DNA of 64,000 nt, taken from positions 86,311-150,310 of the forward strand of contig CAVZJH010000055.1 of NCBI GenBank assembly GCA_963775535.1, written 5' to 3'. A model generated the notes under the pieces. It was not told the origin of the DNA. It did not search any database and worked only from the letters and a program-made list of their open reading frames with translations. Positions 12,854 to 48,519 of this stretch are shown one piece after another (the first letter of the stretch is position 1; each line of letters starts with the position of its first letter). The translations under genes and the position numbers were made by a program. The DNA comes from an uncultured bacterium (lineage in GTDB: Bacteria; Armatimonadota; UBA5829).

Positions 12854-12928
12854 CCATGAATAGAGGTACTTTACATTACCTTGAAGCTCTAAGATTATAT
12901 CGCCGAGAAATAGCACTGTCAATATTCT

Positions 12929-18514: not shown

Positions 18515-18541
18515 GCAGATCTGTTCGGGAGGTGGAACGCG

Positions 18542-20140: not shown

Positions 20141-20179
20141 TCTCATGCATGAGCGTCTTTTTTTAGGCGGTGTAACGGA

Positions 20180-21745
20180 ATGAAAGGTAAGAGTCTAGCG
20201 GTTCTTTGGGGTGTGCTGATGTTCTGCCAGAACGCTGTTGCGTCAGGCGCCAATTCTGCTGACAAGCCGAAGCAGGATTACTGGATGGGCGTTTACTACG
20301 ACCATAGTAAGGTCGGGTCGCTGCACGTGACGGTCCGCGAAGGCCGGGTTAACGACAAAGACGGCTGGATCAGGGATGAGACTATGCGCCTCTGCTACAG
20401 ATCCTCTGGCAAGAGCTATACACTTGAGACAGACCGCGAGCATCGTGCGTGCAACAATTACGAACCAGCATCAGACTGCATGAAGCTGCAAGGCACCGAC
20501 CGCGACTTGTCAGCTGTTGACGAGACGTTTTCACCGGGCGTCGGCAACGCTAAAATCACTTCGGGTAACACAACCGAGGAAAAGACATTGTCGCTTCTGG
20601 CAGAGGACGAAGCACAGCTTACATCAGGCTGCAAATATGATCTCGGAGGAAGAACGCTCTCGCCAGGGGATCGTTTTAATGTAAACGATCTCCACTTTAT
20701 CGCGATGATTTTGGAGCCGACTGGCAATTGCCCATTATGGTCTGGCACAACCGCTGTATCTGTGGAACGTCGGGAGAAAATCACGATTGACGGAAAGTCC
20801 TACAATGCTCTGGTTGTAACCGAGGAGGGCGGCGATGTCGATATCACCAGATGGCAGTTAGCGACCGGAGAGATTATCAAAGAAGAGAGACCTTCTGAAC
20901 ACTTGGTGTTTCTCAGGGAAACAAAGGAAAAGGCAACCGAGGTTGACGAGGGTCCAGGACCCCTCCTTGGGCAGGCCACGTCTGAACCCACAGCAAAACC
21001 CAATCCCCATCTGCTCAGTTCGTCTCCCGCTAATGCTGACTACTGGATGGGTGTGTATTCCGGCTCCTCGAAGATAGGGTATTTTCACGTGGTCACAGGA
21101 CCGGATAAGTTTGAAGGAAAAGATGTTTTCCGAAGAGATGAGAGTTTGCATCTGTGGACAGCTCTGACCGGAAAGAGTACCGATACAGATTTCAATCATA
21201 CATCCTATGCCGGTAATGATTTCTTTCCAGTTTTTGATGAAGCTAGTGTCGTCGATCATACTGTTTCACCTCAGGTTGGAAACTACACGGTTGAGATCCG
21301 GTATAGTCCGGAATCAGCTGACATAACGACGACATTTGAAGGCAAGGCCACTACTGACACAACGCCTGTGTCCGAAGAACACAGGGACTGGCTGATAGAT
21401 GGCTGCGCCTACGATTTTGGCGTGAGAAGACTGCGTGTTGGAGACTCCATCGATATCGTGCACTGGTGCTGGATAGCCAACACACAAGCCAGCATTAACG
21501 GGGGGGAAGTGAATTCAACGCTAAAGACTGTCCGCCGGCAGGACCTCAAACTCGGTGAAAAGACCTACAATGTGTTCGTGATTTCCGAAGAACGCGACGC
21601 AGATGAAAAAGTCACCAGATGGCAGCTTGATAATGGCGAGGTCATCAAGCAGGAAATGTCCGGTGTTACGATGGTCTTGGAGAGCAAGGAAAAAGCGACT
21701 CAGCCCGTCAAGCCAGTGAAGCCAAACGCTGTCGGCACAAAGTGA
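20180..21745 (+). CDS. secreted two-module protein of unknown function, paralogue 3
   Basis: 521 aa with the same architecture. The last ~123 nt are almost identical to paralogue 2. Confidence 0.7.
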   Translation: MKGKSLAVLWGVLMFCQNAVASGANSADKPKQDYWMGVYYDHSKVGSLHVTVREGRVNDKDGWIRDETMRLCYRSSGKSYTLETDREHRACNNYEPASDCMKLQGTDRDLSAVDETFSPGVGNAKITSGNTTEEKTLSLLAEDEAQLTSGCKYDLGGRTLSPGDRFNVNDLHFIAMILEPTGNCPLWSGTTAVSVERREKITIDGKSYNALVVTEEGGDVDITRWQLATGEIIKEERPSEHLVFLRETKEKATEVDEGPGPLLGQATSEPTAKPNPHLLSSSPANADYWMGVYSGSSKIGYFHVVTGPDKFEGKDVFRRDESLHLWTALTGKSTDTDFNHTSYAGNDFFPVFDEASVVDHTVSPQVGNYTVEIRYSPESADITTTFEGKATTDTTPVSEEHRDWLIDGCAYDFGVRRLRVGDSIDIVHWCWIANTQASINGGEVNSTLKTVRRQDLKLGEKTYNVFVISEERDADEKVTRWQLDNGEVIKQEMSGVTMVLESKEKATQPVKPVKPNAVGTK

Positions 21746-21876: not shown

Positions 21877-22104
21877 TATATGTTAGAGTCGGTCTGGATT
21901 CAACCAGGCGGCTTCACAACTGTATTCTTTGGGGTTCGAACAGACCGGTACCGCAGCCGGTCGCTGCCGGTCGACCCCGGATGCGCGTAGATCAATGCCG
22001 GCGTATTTTTTGGCTTGCCCCGGGCGTGCGGGATACTGCCTGGGGACGACTAATTTGCGACAGCCGCTGATAGAGCCTGGCTGCTCGCGAGAGGAGTGTT
22101 GAAC

Positions 22105-23682
22105 ATGTCTGACGAGAAGATGGAGCAAGAGCGGAAGCCTGCCCCCACTCACGAACTGTCGGAGACCCCATTCGGGACGAGTTACTCCGAAGGAGAAAGT
22201 GGAGCCGAGACGGCCCAGCCGGCTGTCGAAGCGACCCAAGAGCAGCCCGCGGACGCGAGGGAAGCCCAGGAGAAAACCCAGCAGCCGGCAGAGGCCGAAG
22301 AGCCGATGACGATGGATGCTGCAATGGCTGGTATGGCCAGCTCAGGAGTCGACTACTCGGGGACGTTCAAATCGCTTACGGTTGGTGATGTTGTGGACGG
22401 GGTTGTTGTTCACATAGACCGCGATGGCGTCCTGGTGGATGTTGGCACCAAATCGGAAGGAATCGTAAAGCCCCACGAGCTTACCCGCGATCTTGGAGCC
22501 AATCCGGAGGACGTTGTTTCGGTCGGTGAGACTATCAAAGTTTACGTGGTTAAGCCCGAAAGCCATGAGGGCGGCCCTGTCCTCTCGAAGAAGAGGGCGG
22601 ATTTTGAAAACGCGTGGGAACGCGTTGAAAAAGTCTTTGCTGAGGGCAGCGTTTTGAAGGCGATGGTCACGGACCGCGTCAAGGGTGGACTGGTGGTCGA
22701 CCTTGGCATTAGAGGGTTCGTTCCGGCATCGCATTGTGGCTCAGGCAAGCTCAAGAACCTCGACAAGTTTATCGGTCAGAGTATGCCGTTCAAGGTCATA
22801 GAGGTAGATCGCGAGCGCAGGAAAGTCGTCCTTTCGAACCGCCTGGCTGTTGAAGAAGAGCAGGAAGAGATGCGCAAGGCGACCGTTTCCGACCTCGCCG
22901 AAGGCCAGATTCGCGACGGTGTGGTCAGGCGCATTACCGACTACGGGGCGTTTGTGGACCTCGGTGGAGTCGATGGGCTTCTGCACGTGAGCAAGATGTC
23001 GTGGACCAGGATCAACCATCCTTCCGAAGCCGTGAAAGTCGGTCAGAAGCTGCAGGTTATGGTGCTCAAGCTCAACCTCACGCAGGGCAGGGTTTCACTG
23101 GGTCTGAGGCAGATTTTGCCGGATCCGTGGGAAGATGTGAAGCGTCTGTACAGCGTTGGCGATGTTATCCAGGGCAGCGTGTCCAGGCTGGTTCCATTTG
23201 GAGCTTTTGTGCAGGTCGAAGGTGGAATCGAGGGCATCATACCGAACTCGGAATTGGGTCCGAAGCGTGTGAGCAATCCTGAGGAAGTTGTCGCCATTGG
23301 TCAGAAGGTTGAGATCAAAGTCATTGATGTTCGACCCGACGAGCGGCGGCTCACGCTTTCTATGAGACAGCTCCTGGCTCAGAAGGAGCGGGAGCGCGAC
23401 GATACCGAATACCGCAGCTACTCGCAGGGCAAGTCGGAAGACAGGACTACTATTGGCGATCTGATCGGTGAACAACTCGGTGATCTAAAGTTCGCCGAGC
23501 CGGTAGAAGAGCCTGCCAAGAAGAAGTCCAAGGCTAGATCGGCTAAGCGAGAAGCCCTTGCGGAAGCGGAAGCTTTGGCGGAGGCTGAGGCCGTCGAGGA
23601 AGAGCCGGTGATCGTTGAGCAGGTTGCGGCCGAAGAGATCGTGGCGGAGCCTGAGGCAGCGGCAGAGCCGAGGCGGCGGTAG
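22105..23682 (+). CDS. rpsA: 30S ribosomal protein S1 (four S1 domains, acidic N- and C-terminal extensions)
   Basis: I prefer the ATG at 22105 (GAGGAG 8 nt upstream). Four S1 OB folds are present (VGDVVDGVV.., EGSVLKAMV.., EGQIRDGVV.., VGDVIQGSV..). The stop falls inside an 18-nt repeat array. Confidence 0.9.
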   Translation: MSDEKMEQERKPAPTHELSETPFGTSYSEGESGAETAQPAVEATQEQPADAREAQEKTQQPAEAEEPMTMDAAMAGMASSGVDYSGTFKSLTVGDVVDGVVVHIDRDGVLVDVGTKSEGIVKPHELTRDLGANPEDVVSVGETIKVYVVKPESHEGGPVLSKKRADFENAWERVEKVFAEGSVLKAMVTDRVKGGLVVDLGIRGFVPASHCGSGKLKNLDKFIGQSMPFKVIEVDRERRKVVLSNRLAVEEEQEEMRKATVSDLAEGQIRDGVVRRITDYGAFVDLGGVDGLLHVSKMSWTRINHPSEAVKVGQKLQVMVLKLNLTQGRVSLGLRQILPDPWEDVKRLYSVGDVIQGSVSRLVPFGAFVQVEGGIEGIIPNSELGPKRVSNPEEVVAIGQKVEIKVIDVRPDERRLTLSMRQLLAQKERERDDTEYRSYSQGKSEDRTTIGDLIGEQLGDLKFAEPVEEPAKKKSKARSAKREALAEAEALAEAEAVEEEPVIVEQVAAEEIVAEPEAAAEPRRR

Positions 23683-23735
23683 AACCCGAAGCAGCGGCAG
23701 AACCCGAAGCGGCGGCAGAGCCTGAAGCAGCGGCA
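23647..23735 (+). repeat. 18-nt tandem repeat (EPEAAA units), five units, one only 17 nt long
   Basis: Units start at 23647, 23665, 23682, 23700 and 23718. Unit 2 (GAGCCGAGGCGGCGGTA) is 17 nt. Confidence 0.85.
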
Positions 23736-23861
23736 GAGCCCACTGCGAGTGAAGAGGGCACAAGCGAAGAGACAGCCCAAGCCGCTCCGGAAACTGAAGG
23801 TAAGACGGAAGCCACGCAGTAGAGGAATAGATCGCTTGCGATAAACGCAATCGGACTTGTC

Positions 23862-31268: not shown

Positions 31269-31400
31269 ATGCGTTATTCACCATCTGGCAGTGAATAATG
31301 TGACTTGAGGGGGTCGATCCAAGCAATGGATTGCCCTGTATAGAGTGCAGCGCCGACAGGACGTACCGCGGTGTGCTGCCTGCAAGTAGAGTTTCCTTAT

Positions 31401-31603
31401 GAGGAATCGCGCCTGAAACCTTTCGCGACTGCGCCTGCGGCGAGTCACTGTCGGTTTCACCGCGAAGGGGATGAAAATGCCTTCGGCCATTTTCAGAGGA
31501 ATCGCGGATGAAAACCTCTCGCATTCTTCCTGCGGAAGAACGCTGTCGGTTTCACCGCGAAGGGATAAAATAGCCTTCAGCTATTTTCGGAGGAGAATAC
31601 ACT
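31401..31603 (+). repeat. ~95-nt structured 5'-leader repeat, two tandem units (C1 31401-31495, C2 31496-31590)
   Basis: Both units start GAGGAATCGCG and end in an A/U-rich hairpin. After unit 2 comes GAGGAGAATACACT then ATG. Hairpin 1 has a different stem sequence in C1 and C2 but the same TGC loop. Confidence 0.8.
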
Positions 31604-31981
31604 ATGAGATCTATTCATAAACGTTTGCCCTTGGCGGCATTGATATCGGCATTGCTTCTGTGTGCGGCGGGGACCGGCGTAATGGCAGGGTTAACCCTGA
31701 CCTGCACTCCGAACGAGGCGACAGCCAACTCCGTGTGGAATTTTACTGCCACCTGGACCGCCAACGTATGGCCGACTGGGTCTCCGGGCACCGCCGCAGG
31801 CACTACTGAAGGTCTTACATACGATGAGAATTACGTGGTCGCCTCTGGGGCGCACGCTCCGAGTGCGGTCGGACCAGAGCGCTCGACTTCCGATTCCTGG
31901 CTGATGGCTTATCCCTATTTCCTGGGATTCGGGCCTCCGTCACCTTTTACGGCTCAAGATGAGTATTATTACGGTCACTGA
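31604..31981 (+). CDS. giant surface protein, fragment 1 (signal peptide)
   Basis: MRSIHKRLPLAALISALLLCAAGTGVMAG. The sense continues in frame 1 after the stop (…LNTDKNPVGYVERPPDPLQP). Confidence 0.6.
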   Translation: MRSIHKRLPLAALISALLLCAAGTGVMAGLTLTCTPNEATANSVWNFTATWTANVWPTGSPGTAAGTTEGLTYDENYVVASGAHAPSAVGPERSTSDSWLMAYPYFLGFGPPSPFTAQDEYYYGH

Positions 31982-32282
31982 ATACCGATAAGAATCCAGT
32001 TGGCTATGTGGAGCGCCCGCCGGATCCGCTTCAGCCAATTGTCGAATTGGCCAGCAATAGTGAAGCCAGGTATGACCGTGGGCTGAACATAGTTGTAGAT
32101 GAGTCGGTAAACAACATGGATTCTACGGACGATCCTCCTGTCGTTCGCGGGGCTATTGATCCCAATACGGGTATAAACTGTCATGCAGAATATGATTGTC
32201 CCCCATATGGACGCGGTTGCCGCTGTGCCAGGCACGGGCGGCTCGCCTGGGAGTGCTGCAATCCCGGAAATAAAGCCTTTCA

Positions 32283-33086
32283 TTGTTACATCGCATGATC
32301 CGGATCTTCCTCATAGGGGTGTGGGCGGACTTCGCCCATAATATTCCGGTGGCTGCGCACCTGACGCAGCTCCAGGACTGGCCCGGAACTCAGCCGCCGG
32401 TCAACGTGATTGAGATCGACGACATGAACGCCGCGGACAGTGTAACCCAGTATTATGTCTCTTATTATTATCCGGGCGAAAATTATGTTGCCACCGCTTC
32501 CTATCCGCTGCCCGCACCGTATACTGTGTATCAGTTGAAGCCGACCAGGACCGCCAATGGCATGGTGGTCAAGATCAATGATGGCATCCTGCACCTTAAC
32601 AAGACCCCTTCAGGGGGCGCGGGCACTGCAGCCGGCGGGCTGCTGGGGGTATACGACAACCCAAACCTTGTCAGTCCGGATTATTCCGGCGTTACCAGTA
32701 AGCCCACGTCGACCCTTGCTTACGACATACCTGGAACAGCGGGGAAAGCTTACGGCGTAATACATCTGCCTGCCCTTCCGCAGAGTACCGCGATGGTGTA
32801 CATAAAAGTCAGCTCATACGCCATTGTGAATGTTAATACCGCGATTGTCCCATCGGACTCTACTTCAGCATTATTCAACCTCAGCACGGGCGTTTATGAT
32901 TCGAAGCAGGGCATCATAAAACTCACGACGCCGCTCTCAGCGCCTACGGTCAACACGACAGTCACGGATTCTACCGGCACGTATACCATCGATACGATGG
33001 GGAACAAAGTAGCAATTAAGTTCACGCCGCTCAGCAGGAATGCTATTACCGTGGGGCAACCGGTCCTTCAACAGCGACGGCGATAA
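32283..33086 (+). CDS. giant surface protein, fragment 2
   Basis: 267 aa. It contains GVYDNPNLVSPDY and GVYDSKQGIIKLTTPL motifs. The sense continues in frame 2 near 33051-33062 (…AITVG / TGPSTATAITCDPPG). Confidence 0.6.
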   Translation: MLHRMIRIFLIGVWADFAHNIPVAAHLTQLQDWPGTQPPVNVIEIDDMNAADSVTQYYVSYYYPGENYVATASYPLPAPYTVYQLKPTRTANGMVVKINDGILHLNKTPSGGAGTAAGGLLGVYDNPNLVSPDYSGVTSKPTSTLAYDIPGTAGKAYGVIHLPALPQSTAMVYIKVSSYAIVNVNTAIVPSDSTSALFNLSTGVYDSKQGIIKLTTPLSAPTVNTTVTDSTGTYTIDTMGNKVAIKFTPLSRNAITVGQPVLQQRRR

Positions 33087-33211
33087 CCTGTGATCCTCCT
33101 GGAACCGTTAACCCGGACACCACTATAGTTCCTAACGCCGAGGGTACATTCAACTTCACCAGTACAACTAATCTTCTCCCGATCGGAACGGACGCGGTTT
33201 CGATCACCTAT

Positions 33212-34618
33212 TTGTGCAATGATTCGGATGCAGGCCCCGAGGGCGCTATATGGCTGGACAATATTAATAGTGCCAGCGAAGGCCCGATACCGATGGACTA
33301 TGATAGTGGAACCCCGGCTACCGGGGCCATATACAAGGTGTCGGTCAGCGCGGGTCTGAATATGAGCAACGATAACCAGTGGCCTCTTCCTGAGTTTGGG
33401 GACAGCGGCCCGGGACAGTGGAGCAATAACCATCTTTTATGGGGGTCGGCGCTCAAGAGTGGAACAATTCCACCTCTTTGGTATGCGCCGCGGCTTATAG
33501 CCGGTGTCCTTGGCGTTGCTCAAACGATCAATAACCCACCTATCCATGCGATAGGCTATATGACCCCACAACCATATTTCTACGACACGAATTTGTCTTC
33601 TGTAATCGTCCACGACAGCCGCCCGAGAGAGCTCTTAACGAACGGCAATCTGGAGATGATCGATCACGCCGGCATTGCTTTCCACAGCCTGCCTAATGGC
33701 ACGGGAGCCGGCCTGTCTTTCTTGACGTGCTATCCGGATCCCGCTCCTAATGGGGTAGGGTGGCCACAGGGGTATGACATATATCCGGTGACAGTAGAGC
33801 CAGTCCAGGAATTGAACTCTACCGAGCCGAACGATGGCTCCAGCTCGACTGAGTTCGTATTCAGAGTCAGATACAATAATGCAGACAATCTGCCTCCACT
33901 ATCGTGGATGCATTACTGGAATGATCCGTGGTTGTTCAACGGGGGCGAGGTCGAGACCAAGGCCGATGAAAGCGGCGTTATATTATATCTCGATGAGTCG
34001 GGAACGGGCGACTATCATCCTCACTTTATGCAGCCGGAGGTTACGACCCAGACAGGGGCGGGCAACGTCTACGTTTACAGGGTTATTCCGCACAGCGCGA
34101 TCGGCATATTTAACGCCCCGCCGCCCTACCCATTGGGCGATCTATATGACGGGGGTTATGGCGTATACAACTTCGACAATACACTGTATCAATCGCTGTC
34201 AATTGGCGTATACCACTATTTCTTCGGGTGCTCCGATGACAGTATTGTTCTCGACGATGCCAAGACATATCTGTTCGATTGGCAGCCGAATGAAACGGAG
34301 TGGGGCTACACCTCCATCCAGGATAATTCAGACTGGCTGAATCACGAGAGTACCGGCACGGATCCTTCAGTTATCCGCCAGGTCGCCGGTTACAGTGCGA
34401 TCAACCGCGCTCCGCAGCGCGTGCCATCGTGCGTAGGTGATCCGAATGTTACTGGTCCATACGACTCAACAATCTACGTAGACCGGCCGGATCGTGTGCC
34501 GGGCCTCTTCGAGCAGACTTTGCAGACAAATCTCGGAACTACTTATCCCTGGAAGGCGTCACAGCATCCTGAGATTACTTGCAGCCTGGGGATGTACCAG
34601 GTACAATCCCGACACTGA
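33212..34618 (+). CDS. giant surface protein, fragment 3
   Basis: 468 aa. The ORF is open upstream of the listed TTG. It contains TEFVFRVRYNNADNLPP. It joins the next fragment near 34600 (…SLGMYQ / YNPDTDTG). Confidence 0.6.
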   Translation: MCNDSDAGPEGAIWLDNINSASEGPIPMDYDSGTPATGAIYKVSVSAGLNMSNDNQWPLPEFGDSGPGQWSNNHLLWGSALKSGTIPPLWYAPRLIAGVLGVAQTINNPPIHAIGYMTPQPYFYDTNLSSVIVHDSRPRELLTNGNLEMIDHAGIAFHSLPNGTGAGLSFLTCYPDPAPNGVGWPQGYDIYPVTVEPVQELNSTEPNDGSSSTEFVFRVRYNNADNLPPLSWMHYWNDPWLFNGGEVETKADESGVILYLDESGTGDYHPHFMQPEVTTQTGAGNVYVYRVIPHSAIGIFNAPPPYPLGDLYDGGYGVYNFDNTLYQSLSIGVYHYFFGCSDDSIVLDDAKTYLFDWQPNETEWGYTSIQDNSDWLNHESTGTDPSVIRQVAGYSAINRAPQRVPSCVGDPNVTGPYDSTIYVDRPDRVPGLFEQTLQTNLGTTYPWKASQHPEITCSLGMYQVQSRH

Positions 34619-35933
34619 CACGGGAGACTCCATGGACGATCTCTTCGTGAGGTGGGACGACCCGAAATATGGCAATGGGCGTTTCCTGGGCACAATAGAC
34701 CCGTTCTACAGAGCAGTCAATCCTGACCTGCCGGGCGCTTTTGCGTCGTCATCGCTGTCCGCTCTCGCAGAGACATGCGGTTTGACCAGCCAGACGGACA
34801 TAACATTCCAGGTGCTGTTTCAGCAAATCAATGATACTGCGCCGAATTACGTGCAGGTATACATAAACAACGCGAACGAGATGACCGGCACTGATACAGC
34901 GCATGCTTTCACAGCCTATACTATGTATCCCAGTCCTAATCAGACGCAGCCGTATGACTATAAACACGGCGTATGGTACCAGTACACCACTAAGCTTCCT
35001 ATGGGGCCGCACACGTACTATTTCCAGGCCTATGATGGAATACACGAGGCAAGGTATCCCGTCCGGCCCGACCAGTTAAACTATGGGGGCGCAGGCAGCT
35101 ATTATAATGATTGGTGGGTACCAACCAGCAGTCTCGAGACCGATCGCGGCACCGCGAGCTATGTCGACAACGACTATTGCCCTGGACCCTTTATCAACCA
35201 TCCGTGTGTGTTGAGCCAAAATACCGTGACGCCGGGCACCGGAAAGCAGGGGAATCAGTTCGAGTACAGGGTAATGTATGCCGATCCTGATGGGCAGAGA
35301 GTCTACAGCGCGAAGCTCACCATAGAGATTAACGATCGAGGTGACACACGCACGTTCGATATGATACCGGAGAGTCCGTTCGCCGACCCGACCGCGAATC
35401 ATTCACAGGATTACATGAATGGCGTCTACTACTACCTGGACACCGCTTCCATAGGCGACCTGGTCCTTGAACAGGGCACGCGGCGCTATTATATGGAGTT
35501 TACAGATGACTGGGGCAGGCAGTTCGATGTGACCGACACCGTAGCCGGTGAGGCAACCAGGCTGCCCGCCGGCGATGGCAACTGGATAGACGGACCGATC
35601 GTGTCTGCAAACCATGCGCCTACTCTCGCGAACGGAAGTGTGCAGTCACAGGACGGCACGTCAAACGCCGCCACTCTGTGGACCTATAACGTTACCTACC
35701 GTGACTTGGACAACGATCCGCCAGCCCTTATCAAGGTCTATCTTGGCTTGCTTGAACCCGACGGGAGGACCATCCTGTGGGATACCGGGCATACGATGTT
35801 ACAAGATGACCCGACCAATACGGTGTACAGCAACGGCATATCGTTTAGTTACCAAACAAGATTGGGAGCCATTGATTTAGTGGATCCCAGCGGGTACTCA
35901 ACCTCAACCGAAGCAGGACCTCTATGCCTTTGA
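34494..35933 (+). CDS. giant surface protein, fragment 4
   Basis: Three repeat-A domains (ITFQVLFQQINDTAPNYVQVYI…HTYYFQAYDG, FEYRVMYADPDG…YYMEFTDDWG, WTYNVTYRDLDNDPP…). It joins the next fragment near 35885-35915 (…DLYAFEAYDG). Confidence 0.65.
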   Translation: MCRASSSRLCRQISELLIPGRRHSILRLLAAWGCTRYNPDTDTGDSMDDLFVRWDDPKYGNGRFLGTIDPFYRAVNPDLPGAFASSSLSALAETCGLTSQTDITFQVLFQQINDTAPNYVQVYINNANEMTGTDTAHAFTAYTMYPSPNQTQPYDYKHGVWYQYTTKLPMGPHTYYFQAYDGIHEARYPVRPDQLNYGGAGSYYNDWWVPTSSLETDRGTASYVDNDYCPGPFINHPCVLSQNTVTPGTGKQGNQFEYRVMYADPDGQRVYSAKLTIEINDRGDTRTFDMIPESPFADPTANHSQDYMNGVYYYLDTASIGDLVLEQGTRRYYMEFTDDWGRQFDVTDTVAGEATRLPAGDGNWIDGPIVSANHAPTLANGSVQSQDGTSNAATLWTYNVTYRDLDNDPPALIKVYLGLLEPDGRTILWDTGHTMLQDDPTNTVYSNGISFSYQTRLGAIDLVDPSGYSTSTEAGPLCL

Positions 35934-35976
35934 AGCGTACGATGGCGCTGCCTGGGCCACCTATAATTCATCCGCG

Positions 35977-37131
35977 GTGGATGAAGACAGGTCCAACGCT
36001 GCGGGCTGCTACGTGCTTCAGAACCTTGTGCCACTGACCACGGATGAGTTTGCCATCAGGCCGATAATTGCACAAAGGGGAACAGTCAATGCGGCTGGTA
36101 ATGCGGTCACGCCCGATAGCCCGGGAGATATAATCAAGGTCTGGGGCGTCTATCAGACGGAAAACCTGGATCAGGACCCAACTTATACTACGAACTACTA
36201 TAACAGTGCTGCGGTATACAACCCGGGTGATCCTACCGTTCCTCTGATAGCGGGTGCGCCCTCGGGAGTTCTATGGATCCAGTATGAAGCTCAGTCACCG
36301 ATAGTCGGTCCGCTTCCTATTAATCTACCCGCGCCCGCCGGTGTCATTCCGGACGCGCAGTTATACCAGAACTATTCGAGCAATCCGACTCCGATATTGA
36401 TCGATGACCAGAAGAACGGCTGGATCTCATCAGACGATCCGACAGACCATGGTGTCATGGTAATGCACGCTGTGGCCGCAAATGCAAATCTGCCGACACT
36501 GACGTATGTTACTCCCGACAGTGCCGCTAACATCGCATCGATCGAAGGAATTTACGACAATCCGTTGTTGACCGGCACGAACTACTACGATCCAACTGTT
36601 CTGAATGAGCCGGCCGTTCAGACCGGCACGGTGACAGAAGGAACAGATGGCAATCTATATGCCAGCGCGAGCTGCGTATATCCCAGCGCGAATGACCCGT
36701 GGCCGCTGGGCGGGAATGATAAGATACAGGGTGTTTTCGCTGCGGCGGATCTGTCGGGCGCTAATTACTATGGAGGACAGCTCCAGTGGCAGCAGGCTCA
36801 GGCGGAGGGTACCCTCAGCTTATCCAGTGTTTGGCCGGACAATCCTTGGGACATTGCTGTGATCTCCGGTGTTTACCAGACGATGGTCGCTTCTTCGGGC
36901 GCGACGAACTATATCACGACAAATACATCCGGGTACCGAATCCGTTTGTTACGCCACCGGGCCCGACAAATGAGTTCATACCCCTTAGTACCGCTTTGGC
37001 GTCGCCGGGGCCTGCATTCATATACTACTACCCGGCAGTCGCTGCAAACCAATACTATAACCCGCCCAGCAGTGCGATTGGATCGAATGGCCAGCCGAGC
37101 GGACCGGGTGGCACGTATTGGATACCGCTGA
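35977..37131 (+). CDS. giant surface protein, fragment 5
   Basis: Four repeat-B motifs (GVYQTENL..TTNYY, GIYDNPLLTGTNYY, GVFAAADLSGANYY, GVYQTMVASSGATNY). It joins the next fragment near 36905-36925. Confidence 0.65.
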   Translation: MDEDRSNAAGCYVLQNLVPLTTDEFAIRPIIAQRGTVNAAGNAVTPDSPGDIIKVWGVYQTENLDQDPTYTTNYYNSAAVYNPGDPTVPLIAGAPSGVLWIQYEAQSPIVGPLPINLPAPAGVIPDAQLYQNYSSNPTPILIDDQKNGWISSDDPTDHGVMVMHAVAANANLPTLTYVTPDSAANIASIEGIYDNPLLTGTNYYDPTVLNEPAVQTGTVTEGTDGNLYASASCVYPSANDPWPLGGNDKIQGVFAAADLSGANYYGGQLQWQQAQAEGTLSLSSVWPDNPWDIAVISGVYQTMVASSGATNYITTNTSGYRIRLLRHRARQMSSYPLVPLWRRRGLHSYTTTRQSLQTNTITRPAVRLDRMASRADRVARIGYR

Positions 37132-39965
37132 ATGTTAAGCCCGGCGCCTCGGGCGCGCCTGCTGTTGGCAGCACGGTATACATACAGGCCCTTACGAGGA
37201 GCTTTAGCTGCGGCGATTCATCCTTGAGACTGACGACGCCTCTCCCTGAAGTGTCGATGACTGCCACGGCGGTCGCGGGCCAATACGTGCTTGCTATCCC
37301 GACCCCGGCGCTAATAGGCAGAGTAGACGGAGTATTCACTTCGTCGAGCCTGACCGGAACGAACTATTATTCGGGTGCGCAGAGCGTTCCGACTAATCCG
37401 TACACAACCGGAGACACGTTGATCCGCCTGTCAGCGCCGTTGAGTGGCACTGTCTATATAGCATACGTGCCGCTCAACCGGTCTGTTTATCTCAGTTACT
37501 CGGACATAAGCTTCACGCATCAAGCCCGCGGCACGGCCGTCGATGCGATACTACCGGATGGAATGACGCTGTCATGGGCCCAGGGAGTATCCTACTTCAT
37601 GCCGGATGGTTGGTCGGTGCCGAACGTTCACATGCGTGGCAATACGACGGACGTTACCGCCGGCACGGTTGGTATATGGCTTAATTCAGACCTGTCTCAG
37701 ACCAACTATTTCAATCCCAGGTGGACCTCCCGGTACATAGATATAACATCCGGAACGGACATTATACCCGCTACCGAGGACAATAGACCGGCTACGCTTA
37801 CCGCGGCTTCGGTCCCGCAGGGGCAGTTGCCCGCAGCAGGTTCAGGAGTGAGCATGGGAACATTGCGGCTTTCCACTCTCGCTCCAACTGGGACCAATTA
37901 CATGTACGCCCGCTATTATCAGTTCGGCGACTACCATATAGACAGGTGGAACCGGAACGTAATGTTCATTACAAATCCGGCGCTGCCTGCGGGGACCAGC
38001 CTCCAGGCGTCCTACTTCTTCGGAACAAAGATGCCGCAGTTGCTGACGGCAAACACGCCTCCAACTCTGTCGCCACCGACAACGAATGGGAAGGCTGCGG
38101 CCAACTGGGGTTTAACCGAGTTGACTTCTACGCTGACGCCTGTCCAGGGGTCACGAAGCGCGCAATACGTATACTCAGTAATCTATGAGGACCCGGACGG
38201 ACCTAACGGGCAGGCTCCGGAGTATGTGAGGGTGTATATCGACGGTGTTGCCTACGATATGACTCCCGCATACACTGGCACTCCTCCATATGGCTCGGGG
38301 GCCTTATACACATACACTCCGCCCAGCGGACTTACGGGAGGTTCTCATAAGTACCACTTTGAGGCCTCAGACGGTGCGGCAGTTGCGTGGCTTGATGATG
38401 TTCCGCCTTACTCACATCAGAGTATTGTTGGATCAGTTGTATCATCGGTGGTCGATTTTAACGGGCCGTGGGTAGATAATCCTCCGGATCTTACCGTCGG
38501 CGCCGCGTCGCCGAATCCGACCTCGGGCAGTATCGCCACGACGGAAAGTATCGATTACACGGTTACATACGACGATATGGATAATGATCCGCCTTATTTC
38601 TACAATCCGGTCACGGACATCTATGATAACCTGGACGGCAATGGCGTTCCTGATGGCCTGGATTGGTCGGGATCTCCGAGATTGTGGATTGATTCCGGCA
38701 CTACGGATCAGACCTACTCCGGTGTTACATCCGCCTTGAATGACGATCCTCTTGCGCCTGGCAAAAAGAGGATTATAGTTGCGACGACCGCAAGCGGAAG
38801 TAATCCAAACTGGACTCAGAACGAGTTCGCCGGCCAGTTGCTGCAGATCACCAACGGCACCCTGCTGAACCGGGTGTATTTGATCCAGAGCAACACTGCC
38901 AACACTCTGACACTGTCTACAGATGATTTGCTGAAGGACGGTGTAGTAGCAGGCGGGGCCAACGCCAGTGCGTTCGTCATCAATGGCCTGCTTTTGTCCA
39001 AGGTCGATCCAACCCAGCAAAACTATACACAGGGCATAGCATACAAGGTTACTGTGCCGGGATTGGCGGTAGGTTCTCACAAGTTCCACTTTACCGCCCG
39101 CAGCAGGCTAACGAAGCCACAATGGCTGCAGACTGAGATGCTCGCGCTGATACCGCCGCAGATGCCGGTTGCCTACTCGTCTCTGGCACGATTCCCTGCC
39201 AGCGGCGAATTGACCGGTCCTACGGTATCCAGCCAGCCGCCGACCGGCGTCGTGGCGCCGACTCTAACCAGCGACGCAGACCATTCGCTCTACGTTGGTC
39301 CTACATATCAGCGTGTGGCTGTAACTTCAACCACCGCAGTCGGGCCTATCGACGCGACCGCGTTTGCGCTGATCCGTGAAGTTCGCGGGGTATACAAGAA
39401 CGCGAACGACTTCGATCTGACTGCTGTTCCGGACAGCGCGACGAATGTGGCGAACGGCTATTACGATCCGGTGGCTACGACGACTCCGTTCCAGCCCGGG
39501 GATCAGACCATAAAACTGACCACAGCTATTCCCGCGTCTATAGCGGGAGCGCCGATGGTGCAGTTTGCTGTGCCTACTCTCGATACAACCACGAATATAG
39601 CATCACTTCAGAGCGTCACGCCGGATGATCCGACGGTTATCGATTCCGTGGTAGCGGTATCGCTGAACCCGGACCTCTCGGGTGTTAACTACGTTTCCTC
39701 GGCTTCTCCGCCACCGCCGACCCTGGGTGGTACTGTATCGTTTAACACCATAACGTTGACCCAACCCCTGCCTGCAGGAACTACACGGGTGTATTTGGAG
39801 TACACGCTGAAGTCGGGCATCACATATCCGCCGATGTATGTGGAATACTTCAAGATGACAAGCACGAACCCACTGCTCGCCACTGATACGGCTACGTTCA
39901 GGGCGACATACCAGGACGCCGGTGGCTACCCTCCAAGTTATCACGATGGATACAGGGTTACGTAA
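36786..39965 (+). CDS. giant surface protein, fragment 6
   Basis: 1059-aa ORF with mixed repeat-A domains (YVYSVIYEDPDG…HKYHFEASDG, IDYTVTYDDMDNDPP…HKFHFTARS) and repeat-B motifs (GVFTSSSLTGTNYY, GIWLNSDLSQTNYF, GVYKNAND…NGYY, LNPDLSGVNYV). Confidence 0.7.
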   Translation: MAAGSGGGYPQLIQCLAGQSLGHCCDLRCLPDDGRFFGRDELYHDKYIRVPNPFVTPPGPTNEFIPLSTALASPGPAFIYYYPAVAANQYYNPPSSAIGSNGQPSGPGGTYWIPLNVKPGASGAPAVGSTVYIQALTRSFSCGDSSLRLTTPLPEVSMTATAVAGQYVLAIPTPALIGRVDGVFTSSSLTGTNYYSGAQSVPTNPYTTGDTLIRLSAPLSGTVYIAYVPLNRSVYLSYSDISFTHQARGTAVDAILPDGMTLSWAQGVSYFMPDGWSVPNVHMRGNTTDVTAGTVGIWLNSDLSQTNYFNPRWTSRYIDITSGTDIIPATEDNRPATLTAASVPQGQLPAAGSGVSMGTLRLSTLAPTGTNYMYARYYQFGDYHIDRWNRNVMFITNPALPAGTSLQASYFFGTKMPQLLTANTPPTLSPPTTNGKAAANWGLTELTSTLTPVQGSRSAQYVYSVIYEDPDGPNGQAPEYVRVYIDGVAYDMTPAYTGTPPYGSGALYTYTPPSGLTGGSHKYHFEASDGAAVAWLDDVPPYSHQSIVGSVVSSVVDFNGPWVDNPPDLTVGAASPNPTSGSIATTESIDYTVTYDDMDNDPPYFYNPVTDIYDNLDGNGVPDGLDWSGSPRLWIDSGTTDQTYSGVTSALNDDPLAPGKKRIIVATTASGSNPNWTQNEFAGQLLQITNGTLLNRVYLIQSNTANTLTLSTDDLLKDGVVAGGANASAFVINGLLLSKVDPTQQNYTQGIAYKVTVPGLAVGSHKFHFTARSRLTKPQWLQTEMLALIPPQMPVAYSSLARFPASGELTGPTVSSQPPTGVVAPTLTSDADHSLYVGPTYQRVAVTSTTAVGPIDATAFALIREVRGVYKNANDFDLTAVPDSATNVANGYYDPVATTTPFQPGDQTIKLTTAIPASIAGAPMVQFAVPTLDTTTNIASLQSVTPDDPTVIDSVVAVSLNPDLSGVNYVSSASPPPPTLGGTVSFNTITLTQPLPAGTTRVYLEYTLKSGITYPPMYVEYFKMTSTNPLLATDTATFRATYQDAGGYPPSYHDGYRVT

Positions 39966-39970
39966 ACGTA

Positions 39971-42223
39971 GTGTTCGATGACATCGGAACCTCTCAGGCA
40001 ATGCATTTGTTGATTCCGCCTACGCTGGCACAGGTGCCGGATTTCACGAAGACTAACTGGTTTACCACTGATCCGATTACCCTGCCGCAGGGCACTCACA
40101 CGTACCACTTCGAGGCATCTGACGGATGGTTCGTTGTGAGATACCCATCACCACCGTCCGGTCCTATAACGGGAAGCGATTATACCGTCAGCGTGAGCTA
40201 CAAGCCCGTACTTTCGGCTGGTGGCGTCACCCCGGCGGTTGGAGCAATATCACAGGCGTTCAACTTCACCGTAACATATACGGATCAGGATGGAACGTCA
40301 GCCACGCCGCCTCACGTGTTTATGAGGATAATTCAGAACAGCAATCCGCCGGTCGAGCTTACACCTCGGGACATGACAACGACATCTACCAGCTCGAACT
40401 ATGCATCCGGTGTTGTATATCAATATACGTCCGATCCAACAAAGGACATATTCACACCAGGTACATATAATGTGATCTTCGAAGCGACTGATGAACTCGG
40501 TGAAGCAGCCGATCCATACCCGGGAGCTACGGATCCGCCGGTTAAGTTCACCTGCGGAAATTATACGAGTATCCCGGTTCTGACAAATCCTCAGGTTCTG
40601 GCAACTGGGACCAATCTACCTGAGGGCGATCTGAACTCGACGTTCACTTATCAAGTTACGTATTCGGACAGCGACGATCTTCCGCCGGTTTCCAACGGAC
40701 AGAAAGATGTCCTCAACGTGAGCATCTACAACCTGGATCTACCGGCTGCCCAGCAGTTGATACAGACACTTCCGATGACCAGGGTTACTACGGGCGCGGT
40801 GGACTACACGGCGGGAGTCGCTTACCATACGACTTCGACAATATCAGGTAAATCACTGCAGCCGGGACGGCACTCGTTTGTGATAACTGCATCCAACGGC
40901 ATTAATGCCGCGGTTCCGGTTACCGGAAGTGGACCAACACTGCTGCTTCCGTATTTCGACAACGTCAAATTGATTTCTGCTGACCTGACCAACGCAGGTG
41001 ACCTCGTTAAGGATCCTGCCGCAGCCACATCAGTGACAAATTCACTTGTAGGGGACAATGTGTTGCTCATCGGCAATCTAGAGTTCCCGGTGGGTACTAC
41101 GACAGCTCCGCCCTCGGAGGTCACGAACATTGTCGTTCAGGTGACAAAGCCGGATGGAACTTCTCTAAGTCTATCGGCTACGGGACAGTTGGCTACCGGA
41201 AGGACTTACTACCTGAATGTTAGTTACCCCACCGGCACCGACCCGGCATTGCAAACAGGCACGAGCTTGACTCTGTCTGCCAGCGGTACCTGGCAATTCG
41301 GAGTGTCGTGGGCAGGCGGATCCGGATGGGATAGCGCAACATTGAATCCCAATCTGAGCGCATCGGTCGGCGGTCCGATGCGCACGATGGCTGTTGCAGA
41401 TCCGACGAACCCTGCGACCAGCATTCCTGTTGTCGATATGGTTGCGCCTCCGAAGATCATGGGCTCGACCGACATAGGTCAGGTCTTCGGGTCGGATAAG
41501 GCAGTTAATATGCAGATTGTAAAGTGGGATCCGGCATCGAGCAGCTATATTCGCTACGGAAATGGTCCGTTCCCGGCGTGCAGCCCGGGAGATGCATTCT
41601 GGATAAAGCCGAACTCGACGTACGTCGCGACATACCCCGCGGTGGCAATCACGACCGACGAGATAAATGATGGGCTGTTGGCATCCGCCGATCCGCAGTT
41701 CCCTCTAGATGTTACGAAGGACTACAGGCTGATAAATGTCTTTGTCAAGGACTATACGAAGGATTCCACGGGAAAAGTCCTGCCGTGCACCATATCGTTG
41801 ACGACTGGCTGGAACCAGTTCGGTGATATCTTCTTCAATTGGAAGAAGGACGCCACGGGGGCCGACCTCATCCCAAAAGTGGATGTTGGAATCCCAATCA
41901 GCGAACTGAGTGTTGTCTACTTGAATCAGACCAAATCATTCGCTGATGCCGTGACTGCTAACTGGATACGCGGGTATGCGTGGCGCTACGATGCCAGCCA
42001 GAACAAGTACGTGGAAGTGAGCCCTACGGACGCTGGAGCAGAAACAGTGCTGTATGCTTGGAGCGGTTACTGGATAAGAGCATTCGTTAATTGTCAACTG
42101 ATCATTGATCCGAACACCACGTATAATGGTACAATGTCGGTCAAGGGTCTGGCTAGTGCGGTGAAGCCTGCGTCGGCAACATCTAATAGCAATATTGATT
42201 TGCCGCCTGCGGTTCCAAACTAG
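39971..42223 (+). CDS. giant surface protein, fragment 7 (C-terminal, carries the shared GW...GYW module)
   Basis: The frame shift near 39948 splits one repeat-A domain (ATFRATYQDAGGYPPSYHDG / IQGYVNVVFDDIGTSQAMHL…HTYHFEASDG). The C-terminus is TGWNQFGD … SFADAVTANWIRGYAWRYD … AWSGYWIRAF. Confidence 0.7.
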   Translation: MFDDIGTSQAMHLLIPPTLAQVPDFTKTNWFTTDPITLPQGTHTYHFEASDGWFVVRYPSPPSGPITGSDYTVSVSYKPVLSAGGVTPAVGAISQAFNFTVTYTDQDGTSATPPHVFMRIIQNSNPPVELTPRDMTTTSTSSNYASGVVYQYTSDPTKDIFTPGTYNVIFEATDELGEAADPYPGATDPPVKFTCGNYTSIPVLTNPQVLATGTNLPEGDLNSTFTYQVTYSDSDDLPPVSNGQKDVLNVSIYNLDLPAAQQLIQTLPMTRVTTGAVDYTAGVAYHTTSTISGKSLQPGRHSFVITASNGINAAVPVTGSGPTLLLPYFDNVKLISADLTNAGDLVKDPAAATSVTNSLVGDNVLLIGNLEFPVGTTTAPPSEVTNIVVQVTKPDGTSLSLSATGQLATGRTYYLNVSYPTGTDPALQTGTSLTLSASGTWQFGVSWAGGSGWDSATLNPNLSASVGGPMRTMAVADPTNPATSIPVVDMVAPPKIMGSTDIGQVFGSDKAVNMQIVKWDPASSSYIRYGNGPFPACSPGDAFWIKPNSTYVATYPAVAITTDEINDGLLASADPQFPLDVTKDYRLINVFVKDYTKDSTGKVLPCTISLTTGWNQFGDIFFNWKKDATGADLIPKVDVGIPISELSVVYLNQTKSFADAVTANWIRGYAWRYDASQNKYVEVSPTDAGAETVLYAWSGYWIRAFVNCQLIIDPNTTYNGTMSVKGLASAVKPASATSNSNIDLPPAVPN

Positions 42224-42240
42224 TGTTGAACGCAGAACCA

Positions 42241-42272
42241 GGCGCGGCTCGGGAATGGCCCCGAGCCGCGCC
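42241..42272 (+). terminator. strong GC-rich hairpin after the giant gene
   Basis: GGCGCGGCTCGGG-AATGG-CCCCGAGCCGCGCC has a 12-13-bp stem and starts 18 nt after the stop. No U-tract follows. Confidence 0.5.
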
Positions 42273-42314
42273 AAATATCACCAGTGTTGTAATGAACTTT
42301 GTGGAGGATTCACG

Positions 42315-43047
42315 ATGAATGGAAGAGGCTGCCCTTGGAAATGGCTTGCCTTATGTGTTGTGATTAGTATTGTCGCAGTGGGTACGGCGAATGCCGGACT
42401 CTTCGGACTGGGAAAGGGCAAGAAGCATGCAGGAAAGGCATCTCGATATTCGTTAGTGGTGTTTCCTTTCGACAATGGCACTGATACAACTGTGCCTGAC
42501 TCATACGGGGGCTATGTCGCGTCCGATGTGCGCACTATGCTGACCGGGAAATCAGAGTATATTCCATATCTTTATACGGATCGGCTGCCATCCGTTCAGA
42601 GGGCCAAGGAAGAGCAGTCCCTGAAACCGTCGGATGTTAATCCACCGTTTGCCGATGATAAGTTGAAGCCGCTCAAGATTGCGCAGGTCATTGGCAGCGA
42701 TTACTACCTTGTAGGATCGATAGAGGAGATAACCGTCGATACCGCCAAGAAAGTTGCGACGGTGACGCTGAAAGCAGATGTGTTCGATACAAGGAACGGA
42801 AGGCTGGTTCGGACTTGTCTTGTTTCCGGTCGCACGCCGGAGACGGTGAAAACGTCCGAAAGCGGAGGATCTCAGAGACATTGCGAAAGGCGCCGCTGTT
42901 ACCAGACTCATAGCGGAAATAACAGCAGATGAGTCGTCTTCGAGTGCAGACCCTGCAGTGAAGCCTGAAGATACAGCGGCAGCGGGTCAGACCCAGACCC
43001 CGGCTCCCGACAAGCCGCTTGCAAAAGCCGCCGCGCCGCAGAAATAG
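42315..43047 (+). CDS. secreted CsgG/LpoB-like-domain protein (one frame break near 42860)
   Basis: ATG at 42315, 6 nt after GGAGGA, then a signal peptide. YSLVVFPFDNGTDTT…GGYVASDVRTMLTG… resembles the N-domain of the 24873 gene product. After the shift it reads …EDLRDIAKGAAVTRLIAEI… to the stop at 43045-43047. Confidence 0.55.
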
Positions 43048-47798: not shown

Positions 47799-47893
47799 AT
47801 AACGCCAATATTCAAGGTCCACCCACCTGGGACGCACGCGAGGGAATAAGACTCGCCGCTTAAGATGCGGCGGCAAACGGGTTGACGGGCCGA

Positions 47894-48010
47894 CTAGCTA
47901 GGCCAGTGCCATTCTCTGTAGACAGCCATAGCGTAGGACATTGGGACCATTACCACGATTCCTACAACCGTGGCTACTGCAACTACGATCAGGGTAAGAA
48001 ATCTTACCAT
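47894..48010 (-). CDS. 38-aa hydrophobic peptide, copy 1
   Basis: MVRFLTLIVVAVATVVGIVVMVPMSYAMAVYREWHWPS. GGAGGAG lies 7 nt upstream of the ATG. It is part of a ~320-bp tandem duplication. Confidence 0.5.
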   Translation of the reverse strand: MVRFLTLIVVAVATVVGIVVMVPMSYAMAVYREWHWPS

Positions 48011-48213
48011 GAGCGACTCCTCCAATTCACCGAAGCTAATGCACGAATGTGCCTGCGAGCGCATTCGTGTGCCCACTCGGTTATCCTGCCAGAATCAATG
48101 ATACTCTTGCAAGAACTGTACCATTCAGCATGGCGGCGAGTTCGTGTACATAATCCGAGTTCACTTCGCGTGCCGAGCGAAGCGAGTCGAAATGTCCCGT
48201 GCCGTCACGTCGA

Positions 48214-48330
48214 CTATCCCGCCCAGTGCCATTCTCTGTAGATGGCCAAAGCGTATGACATTGGGGCCATCGCTATGAGCCCTGCAAGGGTGACTACTGC
48301 AACTACGATCAGCGCTAAACTCCTAAACAT
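48214..48330 (-). CDS. 38-aa hydrophobic peptide, copy 2
   Basis: MFRSLALIVVAVVTLAGLIAMAPMSYALAIYREWHWAG. AAGGAG lies upstream. Length and C-terminal YREWHW are conserved with copy 1. Confidence 0.5.
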   Translation of the reverse strand: MFRSLALIVVAVVTLAGLIAMAPMSYALAIYREWHWAG

Positions 48331-48519
48331 AAGTGACTCCTTCACTGCAGCGAAGCTAATGCACGAATCTTCAGACGCTCCGCCTGTAAAACGATTCGTG
48401 TGCCCACCCGATAATCCTGCCAGGATTATATATACTCTTGCAAGAACTGTACCATTACGCAAGATAGCGGGGATCTGTATAGATAATCTGAGCTTGCTTC
48501 GTGTGAGTCGTCTCAATCC

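Follow-up and report, generated by a model that had tools for sequence, protein, structure and literature searches.

A probable family of interspersed repeats at the Shine-Dalgarno sequences of unrelated genes in an uncultured member of the Armatimonadota

To our knowledge, interspersed repeats that carry a ribosome-binding site (RBS) are known from few pathogens only (Neisseria REP2, Borrelia IR sequences and MIRU). Here, we describe a unit of ~95 nt that occurs in a 64-kb stretch of DNA from an uncultured bacterium of the phylum Armatimonadota (contig CAVZJH010000055.1; the whole stretch is referred to below as the window). The window contains four copies of the unit, all on the + strand, at three loci (A, B and the tandem C1 + C2). 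The reading that we favour, with moderate confidence, is that the unit is a lineage-specific, non-autonomous interspersed DNA repeat that occupies the core of Shine-Dalgarno (SD) sequences and becomes the last ~95 nt of the 5′ untranslated region (UTR) of unrelated genes. Compared with described systems, the closest known kind appears to be the RBS-carrying intergenic repeat, of which the present family would be a new member.

REP2 of Neisseria (CREN) is 120–150 bp long, has no terminal inverted repeats (TIRs), and comprises two stem-loops, a promoter, an RBS and an ATG immediately upstream of open reading frames (ORFs) that form a contact-regulated regulon (Parkhill 2000; Morelle 2003; reviewed in PMC3184786). 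The IR sequences of Borrelia plasmids resemble REP2 (Dunn 1994; reviewed in PMC3184786). Like both, the present unit has no TIRs but two internal stem-loops, lies directly upstream of unrelated ORFs in the orientation of the gene, and carries an RBS and 5′-UTR sequence. It differs from REP2 in its length (~95 nt), in ending at the SD core, with a spacer of 6–8 nt and an ATG that are gene-specific, in having no internal sigma-70-like promoter, in forming head-to-tail tandems, and in its phylum; the likeness, drawn from the published descriptions, is claimed as one of kind, not of homology. MIRUs are 40–100 bp long, occur in tandem and in the orientation of the genes, overlap the translational signals of their neighbors with their ends, have tetranucleotide direct repeats, and are missing from the corresponding site in a related species (Supply 1997; PMC3184786). 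The present units share with them the size, the head-to-tail tandems (C1 + C2 and two further loci of the same organism, L017 and L019), the orientation of the flanking genes and, at a third further locus (L018), the position in a short co-directional spacer. Their ends also overlap translational signals (the head of the unit at L019 provides a stop codon, and the tails are SDs), relatives lack them at the orthologous site, and filled sites show tetranucleotide direct repeats. In contrast to MIRUs, which hold small ORFs that overlap the start or stop codons of their neighbors, the present units have no conserved ORF, and the ATG in the head is missing from A and C1. They also form one long and one short hairpin, and they head monocistronic genes as well.

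The unit also resembles REP/REPIN sequences and the PATEs of the IS200/IS605 type in being short, non-coding and defined by hairpins, in the lack of TIRs and of a classical target duplication, in a conserved flanking tetranucleotide and a one-sided orientation, and in keeping its hairpin structure while the sequence drifts. REPINs, in which two inverted REPs make up one long hairpin and which go with a cognate single-copy RAYT (Y1 transposase) gene flanked by REPs, are found in either orientation, for the most part at the 3′ ends of genes. A PATE carries a sub-terminal hairpin at each end and inserts 3′ of a fixed tetra- or pentanucleotide similar to its right-end cleavage site. We know of no REP, REPIN or PATE member that targets or ends in an SD. 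The likeness to IS200/IS605-PATE lies in the junctions (RGGA/...AGGA/, the slash marking the boundary) and in the sub-terminal hairpins, although in the present unit the two hairpins are dissimilar and the sample comprises six loci. Hairpin 1 is a ~58-nt imperfect hairpin that recalls a REPIN, but the unit adds an unrelated second hairpin and a fixed head and tail, and its orientation rule differs from that of REPINs. Finally, stem-loop sequence families are genome-specific, foldable intergenic repeats that are possibly co-transcribed and alter the expression of their neighbors (Petrillo, Di Nocera and colleagues, PMC2267715). The present family is similar to them and to Correia elements as a genome-specific set of repeated, foldable intergenic sequences; most stem-loop families differ from it in having no fixed register to a start codon, and Correia elements in having TIRs and a TA duplication.

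The four copies in the window and the largest of the downstream genes are as follows.

9176–9275, + strand: unit A, full (recognized from the sequence; covariance model 111.9 bits; nhmmer 1.4e-30); head AAGGAATCGCGG, hairpin 1 at 9182–9239, hairpin 2 at 9245–9267, tail with the SD GAGGAG at 9268–9273, ATG of the DUF5069 gene (assigned by Pfam) at 9280.
12929–12981, + strand: unit B, an internal-deletion derivative (nhmmer 6e-5); head and 5′ arm up to the apex CCTGCGG, fused directly to CATTTTCAGAGGAG; SD GAGGAGG, 7 nt, ATG of sppA (Pfam Peptidase_S49) at 12990.
31401–31496, + strand: unit C1, the upstream member of the tandem (covariance model 87 bits; nhmmer 1.3e-29; arm-compensation test); hairpin 1 at 31407–31465 with the inner stem replaced (GACTGCGCC/GGCGAGTC), hairpin 2 at 31472–31495.
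31497–31597, + strand: unit C2, the gene-proximal full unit (covariance model 122.6 bits; nhmmer 1e-32); hairpin 1 at 31502–31560, hairpin 2 at 31567–31587, SD GGAGGAG at 31589–31595, 8 nt, ATG at 31604.
31604–42932, + strand: the giant gene, at least eight consecutive ORFs in shifting frames over ~11.3 kb, with a signal-peptide-like N-terminus.

The full units consist of a head (RAGGA/ATCGCGG), the ~58-nt imperfect hairpin 1, a 3′ junction (CTGTCGGTTTCACCGCGAA), a short A/T-rich hairpin 2 and a tail (TTTTCAGAGGA/G). All four units have AGGAAYCGCG as head, CCTGCGG as apex and ATTTTCRGAGGA(G) as tail. Recurrence of these sequences by chance is highly improbable: the 19-mer CTGTCGGTTTCACCGCGAA, invariant in A, C1 and C2, occurs three times in the window (0.03 expected), and ATTTTCRGAGGAG occurs four times (0.18 expected). 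A covariance model of the three full units (A, C1 and C2) gave them 87–123 bits (E values of 1e-19 to 1e-27) and found no other convincing match in the 64 kb, and the nhmmer profile of the unit returned A, C1 and C2 at E values of 1e-29 to 1e-32 and B at 6e-5. A and C2 are 91% identical. All sequences quoted in an earlier note on this DNA, which had been made from the letters alone, are present where it placed them, with two corrections: the copy that it reported before the DUF5069 gene at 9148–9279 exists, but unit A proper begins at 9176, and the copy before sppA (12929–12989) exists as well but, as an internal-deletion derivative, cannot form either hairpin.

Every unit head reads in one frame as AGG AAT/AAC CGC GGA/GCC TGA/TAA (R-N-R-G/A-stop; e.g. 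9177–9191, 12930–12944, 31402–31416 and 31497–31511, and 7086–7100 at L019). The shared stop is probably a by-product of the sequence GATGAAA/GATAAA, and L019 is the only locus at which a real gene uses it. A conserved upstream ORF or translational coupling (through the head ATG or the RNRG-stop frame) was ruled out, as the ATG is missing from A and C1, and reading of the units in six frames gave no ORF conserved among them. Three other candidate readings were also rejected on the sequence, which has no cassette array (integron attC), no spacer structure (CRISPR) and no A-specific mutation pattern (DGR). The proposal that a decayed 3′ partial unit precedes every unit did not hold either: local alignment against 3405 control windows gave weak evidence for A (p 0.002–0.03) and no support at B or C1, and such a partial unit is clear only at L017 (nhmmer 7e-6).

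The position of the units relative to the translation signals became apparent from their boundaries. The tail of the unit is the sole SD of the DUF5069 gene (6 nt from the ATG at 9280), of sppA (7 nt from the ATG at 12990) and of the giant gene (8 nt from the ATG at 31604). Similarity among the copies ends at GAGGAG, and the spacer and ATG differ from copy to copy. On the left, every recognizable unit is flanked by RGGA (GGGA at L018), and on the right it ends in AGGA (GGGA at L018); within tandems the junction AGGA is shared, so that the tail AGAGGA of C1 doubles as the head of C2. Removal of the units in silico left an intact SD in each case. Unit A cut out between ...AGAAGGA and GAAACCAATG gives AAGGAG-6-ATG as the reconstructed empty site, removal of unit B gives AAGGAGG-7-ATG, and joint removal of C1 and C2 gives GAGGAG-8-ATG. 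Since the unit starts after an SD core and ends in one, the downstream gene is never deprived of its SD, and as read from these junctions the unit supplies the SD to its host gene. The RGGA before and the AGGA at the end of the units form a possible target-site duplication of 4 nt that is identical to the SD core.

The genes downstream of the units are functionally unrelated (DUF5069, an S49 peptidase, a giant secreted protein and, at L018, a sulfatase). The giant gene of the earlier note is not a single ORF in this assembly; the ORF that begins at 31604 stops at 31981 and is followed by ORFs in shifting frames, none of which has a Pfam match. Frameshift errors of the long-read assembly are probably the cause, because polA (14146–16858), too, is present as two overlapping ORFs, although the homologous proteins are undivided and ~900 aa long. 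For the same reason of assembly indel errors, little weight should be given to differences of one base in the length of A/T runs from unit to unit.

Contigs from elsewhere in this genome, ~70 kb in all and reached via identical insertion sequence (IS) transposases, yielded three further loci with units. Together with the window, the survey thus covers ~135 kb of one genome and six loci.

L017, 2661–2726: truncated tandem; the 3′ portion of one unit (nhmmer 7e-6) and, head-to-tail behind it, 31 nt from the start of a full unit, where the contig ends.
L018, 9069–9110: short form AGGGAATCGCGGATGAAATCGTCTTCGGCCATTTTTAAGGGAG, 6 nt, ATG of a sulfatase fragment.
L019, 7086–7250: head AGGAATCGCGGATGA (1 mismatch in 17), then two strongly diverged units, in a convergent spacer.

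The short form at L018 occupies a 73-nt spacer between co-directional genes; it has lost hairpin 1 through deletion between the internal direct repeats GGATGAAA and keeps hairpin 2. At L019 a phosphoglucomutase gene takes its final codons and its stop from the head, and the units retain long hairpins and a stem similar to hairpin 2, but their tail has decayed to GAAAGA and no start codon follows. Units can therefore overlap the 3′ end of a gene, the C-terminus of this phosphoglucomutase being formed by the unit head. All recognizable units are co-oriented with the adjacent gene, and at four of the five resolvable loci they abut a start codon, L019 in its convergent spacer being the only exception. 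The earlier note had asked whether further copies exist, and whether they would be found in both orientations and away from gene starts: there are three further loci in the same genome, and every recognizable copy follows the direction of its neighbor, but one degenerate copy does lie at a gene 3′ end. A head-like 17-mer at 9224–9240 of contig L024 has three mismatches and is compatible with chance (~0.3 expected by estimate). By extrapolation, which is not a count, six loci in ~135 kb would correspond to the order of a hundred or more units per genome.

The copies form a spectrum of age and decay, from the 91% identical A and C2, through C1 with its replaced stem and the deletion forms B and L018, to the decayed L019. 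Judged from their sequences, the deletion derivatives B (no hairpins) and L018b (3′ hairpin only) are still tolerated as leaders. At the orthologous DUF5069 loci of relatives (L010, L011 and L012; protein 77–81% identical; 43 kb in total) neither the covariance model nor nhmmer detected a unit, and the site is a plain SD (AAGGAG-6 nt-ATG in L011 and GGAGGA-7 nt-ATG in L010). Taken together, the dispersed copies, the age spectrum, the tandems, the copy away from a start codon, the absence in relatives and the hairpins that are symmetric between strands point to a spreading and decaying DNA repeat rather than a conserved cis-regulator.

Rfam at the gathering score returned only one tRNA in the whole window, and at E ≤ 10 there was no match across 31300–31700, so the novelty claimed earlier for the tandem stood up to this comparison. 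Blastn of the tandem gave no match in plasmid and phage collections, two patterns (the 19-mer with the tail; head, apex and tail) gave 0 matches in metagenome contigs (JGI), and concatenated six-frame translations of the units used as a protein query gave nothing at E ≤ 10. Seven matches to the exact 19-mer in contigs of representative genomes, a set that does not include the present species, came from unrelated taxa, had no flanking similarity and were attributed to chance, and three pattern matches in viral contigs were all rejected by the covariance model. Exact-protein look-ups (the 389-aa start variant of ISAs1, P0126 and SppA) gave no match. The closest PolA homologues, from Armatimonadota metagenome-assembled genomes, are 73% identical, and the best non-self DUF5069 homologue is 82% identical; the organism has no close relatives in the databases, which would explain why the exact-pattern scans returned only chance matches or none. 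A known IS or MITE terminus as the source of the unit was also considered, and its nhmmer profile had no match at the ends of the ISAs1, UPF0236-like and IS256-like copies of the window and the further loci. As a separate observation, the window holds an IS cluster at 2374–6790, with an ISAs1-type element (2374–3543, − strand), a UPF0236-like transposase (3763–5016, + strand) and an IS256/Transposase_mut element (5570–6790, − strand); identical copies of the ISAs1 and UPF0236 proteins are encoded on further contigs of this organism.

Fold prediction indicated two hairpins in each full unit. Hairpin 1 (~58 nt, imperfect) is composed of an outer stem (TCGCGG/CCGCGA), a middle stem ((G)AAACC/GGTTT(C)) and an inner stem below the apex CC-TGC-GG. 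Hairpin 2 is 22–24 nt long and A/T-rich (GAAAATG.../...CATTTTC), and it ends 1–2 bases before the SD, which is unpaired in the minimum free energy (MFE) and centroid structures of A and C1. The predicted fold of unit A has −33.1 kcal/mol (z −3.0), and unit B, in which neither hairpin is formed, folds no better than shuffled sequences (z +1.06). The inner arms of C1 and C2 differ at 7/9 and 6/8 positions (13/17 in total) around the same CCTGCGG apex. Nevertheless, each inner stem retains 6–7 Watson–Crick pairs in register with the apex, whereas chimeric arms form 0 pairs. A register-specific pair count over all possible arms gave chances of 0.004 and 0.001 for a random 3′ arm to reach the pairing of C1 and C2. 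The stem replacement was judged by this count, as an MFE test was uninformative (GC-rich random arms fold anyway), and column-wise counting of covariation was discarded because the model alignment leaves the bulged stem of C1 out of register. Hairpin 2 also changes in a compensatory manner (AAAATG..CATTTT vs AAAATAGC..GCTATTTT).

The whole-stem covariation between C1 and C2 that had been noticed in the sequence is thus real, but its interpretation as selection on an RNA fold was not supported. The three intact units contain 0 G-U among ~90 predicted pairs, and their reverse complements fold better (−40 to −42 vs −33 to −35 kcal/mol), since A·C mismatches turn into G·U on the other strand. Pure Watson–Crick hairpins and a better-folding reverse complement are typical of DNA palindromes, and a DNA-level hairpin constraint or a palindromic origin accounts for the compensatory data equally well as an RNA fold. 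The suggestion that the 3′ hairpin is an expression platform was not borne out either: it forms no terminator and leaves the SD unpaired, B leads sppA without hairpins, and the short form at L018 keeps only the 3′ one.

The spread of such a repeat could be pictured as follows. Insertion at an SD core would re-create the SD and hence be harmless to translation, and the new AGGA would permit repeated insertion, which would lead to head-to-tail tandems that share AGGA. The process would be site-directed, either by hairpin-dependent transposition of single-stranded DNA (ssDNA) 3′ of AGGA, following the model of IS200/IS605-PATE or REP/RAYT, or by microhomology-mediated copying between SDs. The hairpins would then be needed for spread and not for regulation. 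For the host, the unit would act mainly as a portable translation-initiation region with a structured, possibly stabilizing leader; a role as a stabilizing 5′ stem-loop, or of hairpin 2 as an A/U-rich enhancer, is conjecture. A stronger form of this scheme, which we put forward only tentatively and regard as rather unlikely, is that the unit is a hairpin-dependent mobile element of the ssDNA type, with the SD core AGGA both as its target and as its own right end, so that it homes to RBSs genome-wide, regenerates its site, stacks tandems and leaves a structured leader behind. The earlier note had included a mobile SD-carrying leader of the MITE or REP kind among its options. This option is favored by the lack of an Rfam match, the further truncated, deleted, tandem and decayed copies, their absence in relatives and the unrelated genes. 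The part of it that finds support is the SD-carrying, spreading repeat; of the marks of a MITE, the unit has no TIRs, and no match to it was found at the IS ends of the window and the further loci.

Several observations weigh against the interpretation as a spreading repeat. No candidate transposase (Y1/RAYT or other), and no TnpA or TnpB partner of the IS200/IS605 type, was found by Pfam among the ORFs of the 64-kb window, a point in which the unit also differs from REPINs and PATEs as known. There are no TIRs: the head ATCGCGG... does not recur inverted in the tail ...CATTTTCAG, and the only complementarity between the unit ends is sub-terminal (TGAAA/TTTCA). The AGGA on both sides may be sequence of the element and not target, as its 4 nt equal the SD core. 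The relatives with empty sites are distant (77–81% protein identity), no polymorphism of filled versus empty sites was seen within the species, and ~135 kb of one genome with six loci is a narrow basis. One diverged copy (L019_2) contains five G-U pairs, and its + strand is by far the better-folding one; the conservation of loops and junctions while a helix varies is also a signature of functional RNA. A regulatory role acquired by a spreading repeat, as in REP2/CREN, may moreover be compatible with the same data.

These last points lead to the strongest of the alternatives, which we regard as possible but doubtful: a co-regulating 5′ leader similar to CREN, in which conserved single-stranded parts of the transcribed units would be bound by one RNA-binding protein or small RNA that tunes translation or stability jointly. 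Equally tentatively, the bound parts could be the apical loop of CCUGCGG, the junction CUGUCGG..CA, and the GGA-rich head and tail. Such a leader would have to be transcribed, and a sigma-70 consensus scan revealed two candidate promoters.

9093–9122, + strand: sigma-70-like candidate TTGATG-18-TATACT, TG-extended, ~50 nt upstream of unit A (consensus scan, 9/12).
12870–12898, + strand: sigma-70-like candidate TTTACA-17-GATTAT, ~30 nt upstream of unit B (consensus scan only, 9/12).

The scan around unit A gave five sites compared with 3.2 expected in shuffled sequences, which is weak evidence for the promoter at 9093–9122; if used, it would place unit A within the 5′ UTR. The candidate at 12870–12898 sits in a divergent spacer that also holds the promoter of a tRNA-Leu gene (TTGACA-17-TATAAT, − strand, 12922–12894). 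The latter is a perfect 12/12 match, which indicates that the sigma-70 consensus applies in this organism. The scan detected no promoter inside any unit, and no terminator-like sites were found at the units. Because promoter-like sites lie upstream of A and B and none inside the units, the units probably lie inside 5′ UTRs, as far as promoter prediction can tell.

The placement in mRNA by these sites suits a co-regulating leader, as do the invariance of loops and junctions alongside the compensatory replacement of the inner helix, the shared direction of each gene-abutting unit and its gene, to which the unit brings the SD, the + strand-specific pairing that L019_2 retains via G-U pairs, and the precedent of Neisseria REP2; a mobile origin would also be compatible with such a role. 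It is, however, difficult to reconcile with the downstream genes being unrelated, with gene-heading derivatives that lack both hairpins (B) or hairpin 1 (L018b), with the missing unit at the orthologues in relatives, with the 0 G-U pairs and the better-folding opposite strand of the intact units, and with the decayed copy at L019, which precedes no start.

An improbable alternative is a promoter or operator cassette that acts at the DNA level, in which a transcription factor would bind the large inverted repeat, the −10 box would be provided by the A/T-rich segment (GATAAAAT/GATGAAAAT), and only ~25 nt including the SD would be transcribed. Every full unit does contain TAAAAT/GAAAAT ~30 nt upstream of the SD, the structure has the symmetry between strands that a DNA site would show, and promoters are present in both REP2 and the IR sequences of Borrelia. 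However, the scan that recognized the neighboring tRNA promoter perfectly was blank inside the units, there is no acceptable −35 hexamer at 16–18 nt, and unit B heads sppA without the A/T-rich segment.

A metabolite riboswitch or transcription attenuator, with the tandem pair as sensor units and the 3′ hairpin as expression platform, is very improbable. The two-domain appearance (a large structured domain and a small hairpin beside the SD) and the tandem arrangement, as in some riboswitches, would suit it, but there is no Rfam match even at E ≤ 10, the U-run of hairpin 2 lies within the stem so that it is not a terminator, the SD is left unpaired, the genes have no function in common, relatives do not share the unit, and truncated copies still head genes. 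The doubt that had been expressed about a metabolite riboswitch is thereby upheld.

Finally, mis-assembled duplications in an error-prone long-read assembly, or chance, can be dismissed as a source of the copies, since, although the assembly clearly carries frameshift errors, the copies differ mutually in a structured way and the units recur in L001, an independent contig from a different assembly record, in the Illumina-based Logan contigs L002 and L017 (L002 matching the 3′ half of unit A base for base), and at L018 and L019, which come from the assembly of a second sample. Two short-read contigs have one of their ends within a unit, in keeping with the way in which repeats break de Bruijn graphs. 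The sister contig L001, compared with the window, shows small indels and more split genes, which is typical of an unpolished long-read assembly.

Some other features of the window were also recorded. The gene dnaN (56844–57968, − strand) is found without an adjacent dnaA, and over most of the window the + strand has a positive GC skew; owing to this skew, the + strand, which carries all units of the window, is probably the leading strand. The gene for tRNA-Leu(CAA) (12768–12853, − strand) is located beside a phage-integrase fragment (12113–12553), a TacA1-like antitoxin (11799–12071, − strand) and a GNAT acetyltransferase (11284–11802, − strand), and the region 11284–12922 looks like the remnant of an element that had integrated at the tRNA with a TacAT-type toxin–antitoxin pair. 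Three tandem paralogues (515, 532 and 521 aa) at 16967–21745 contain repeated blocks that are 71–96% identical in nucleotides (mostly 73–78%); their N-termini are alike and resemble signal peptides, and Pfam gave no credible domain. A tandem repeat of 18 nt (6 codons), rich in Pro, Glu and Ala (CCNGARGCRGCGGCAGAR), is located at 23633–23739, at the 3′ end of the gene for ribosomal protein S1 (22096–23682), and extends past the stop codon in the assembly. At 47891–48461 there is a ~320-nt tandem duplication (78–85% identical), with − strand ORFs that end at ~47894 and 48214; each copy encodes a 38-aa hydrophobic peptide after GGAGGAG (MVRFLTLIVVAVATVVGIVVMVPMSYAMAVYREWHWPS and MFRSLALIVVAVVTLAGLIAMAPMSYALAIYREWHWAG), with no Rfam match. 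As the differences between the copies are conservative, these look like real genes for small membrane proteins. Two predicted secreted proteins (42–650; 59875–61125, − strand) have PEP-CTERM-like tails (..VPEPSP.. and ..VPEPSS.., a hydrophobic stretch and basic residues), which suggests that the organism has an exosortase system.

If the interpretation as a spreading, SD-occupying repeat is correct, the Armatimonadota, an almost unstudied phylum, have their own family of RBS-carrying interspersed repeats. The clean junctions (RGGA/unit...AGGA/G), the tandems that share AGGA and the deletion forms make the target-site hypothesis directly testable. For annotation, the family is a warning that structured leaders with compensatory changes can be young repeats and not riboswitches, and for assembly, that such repeats break short-read assemblies right at gene starts. 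Should the unit prove to be an SD-homing element, it would be a transposable element that seeks translation starts, and thus a natural route to rewired 5′ UTRs and new regulons.

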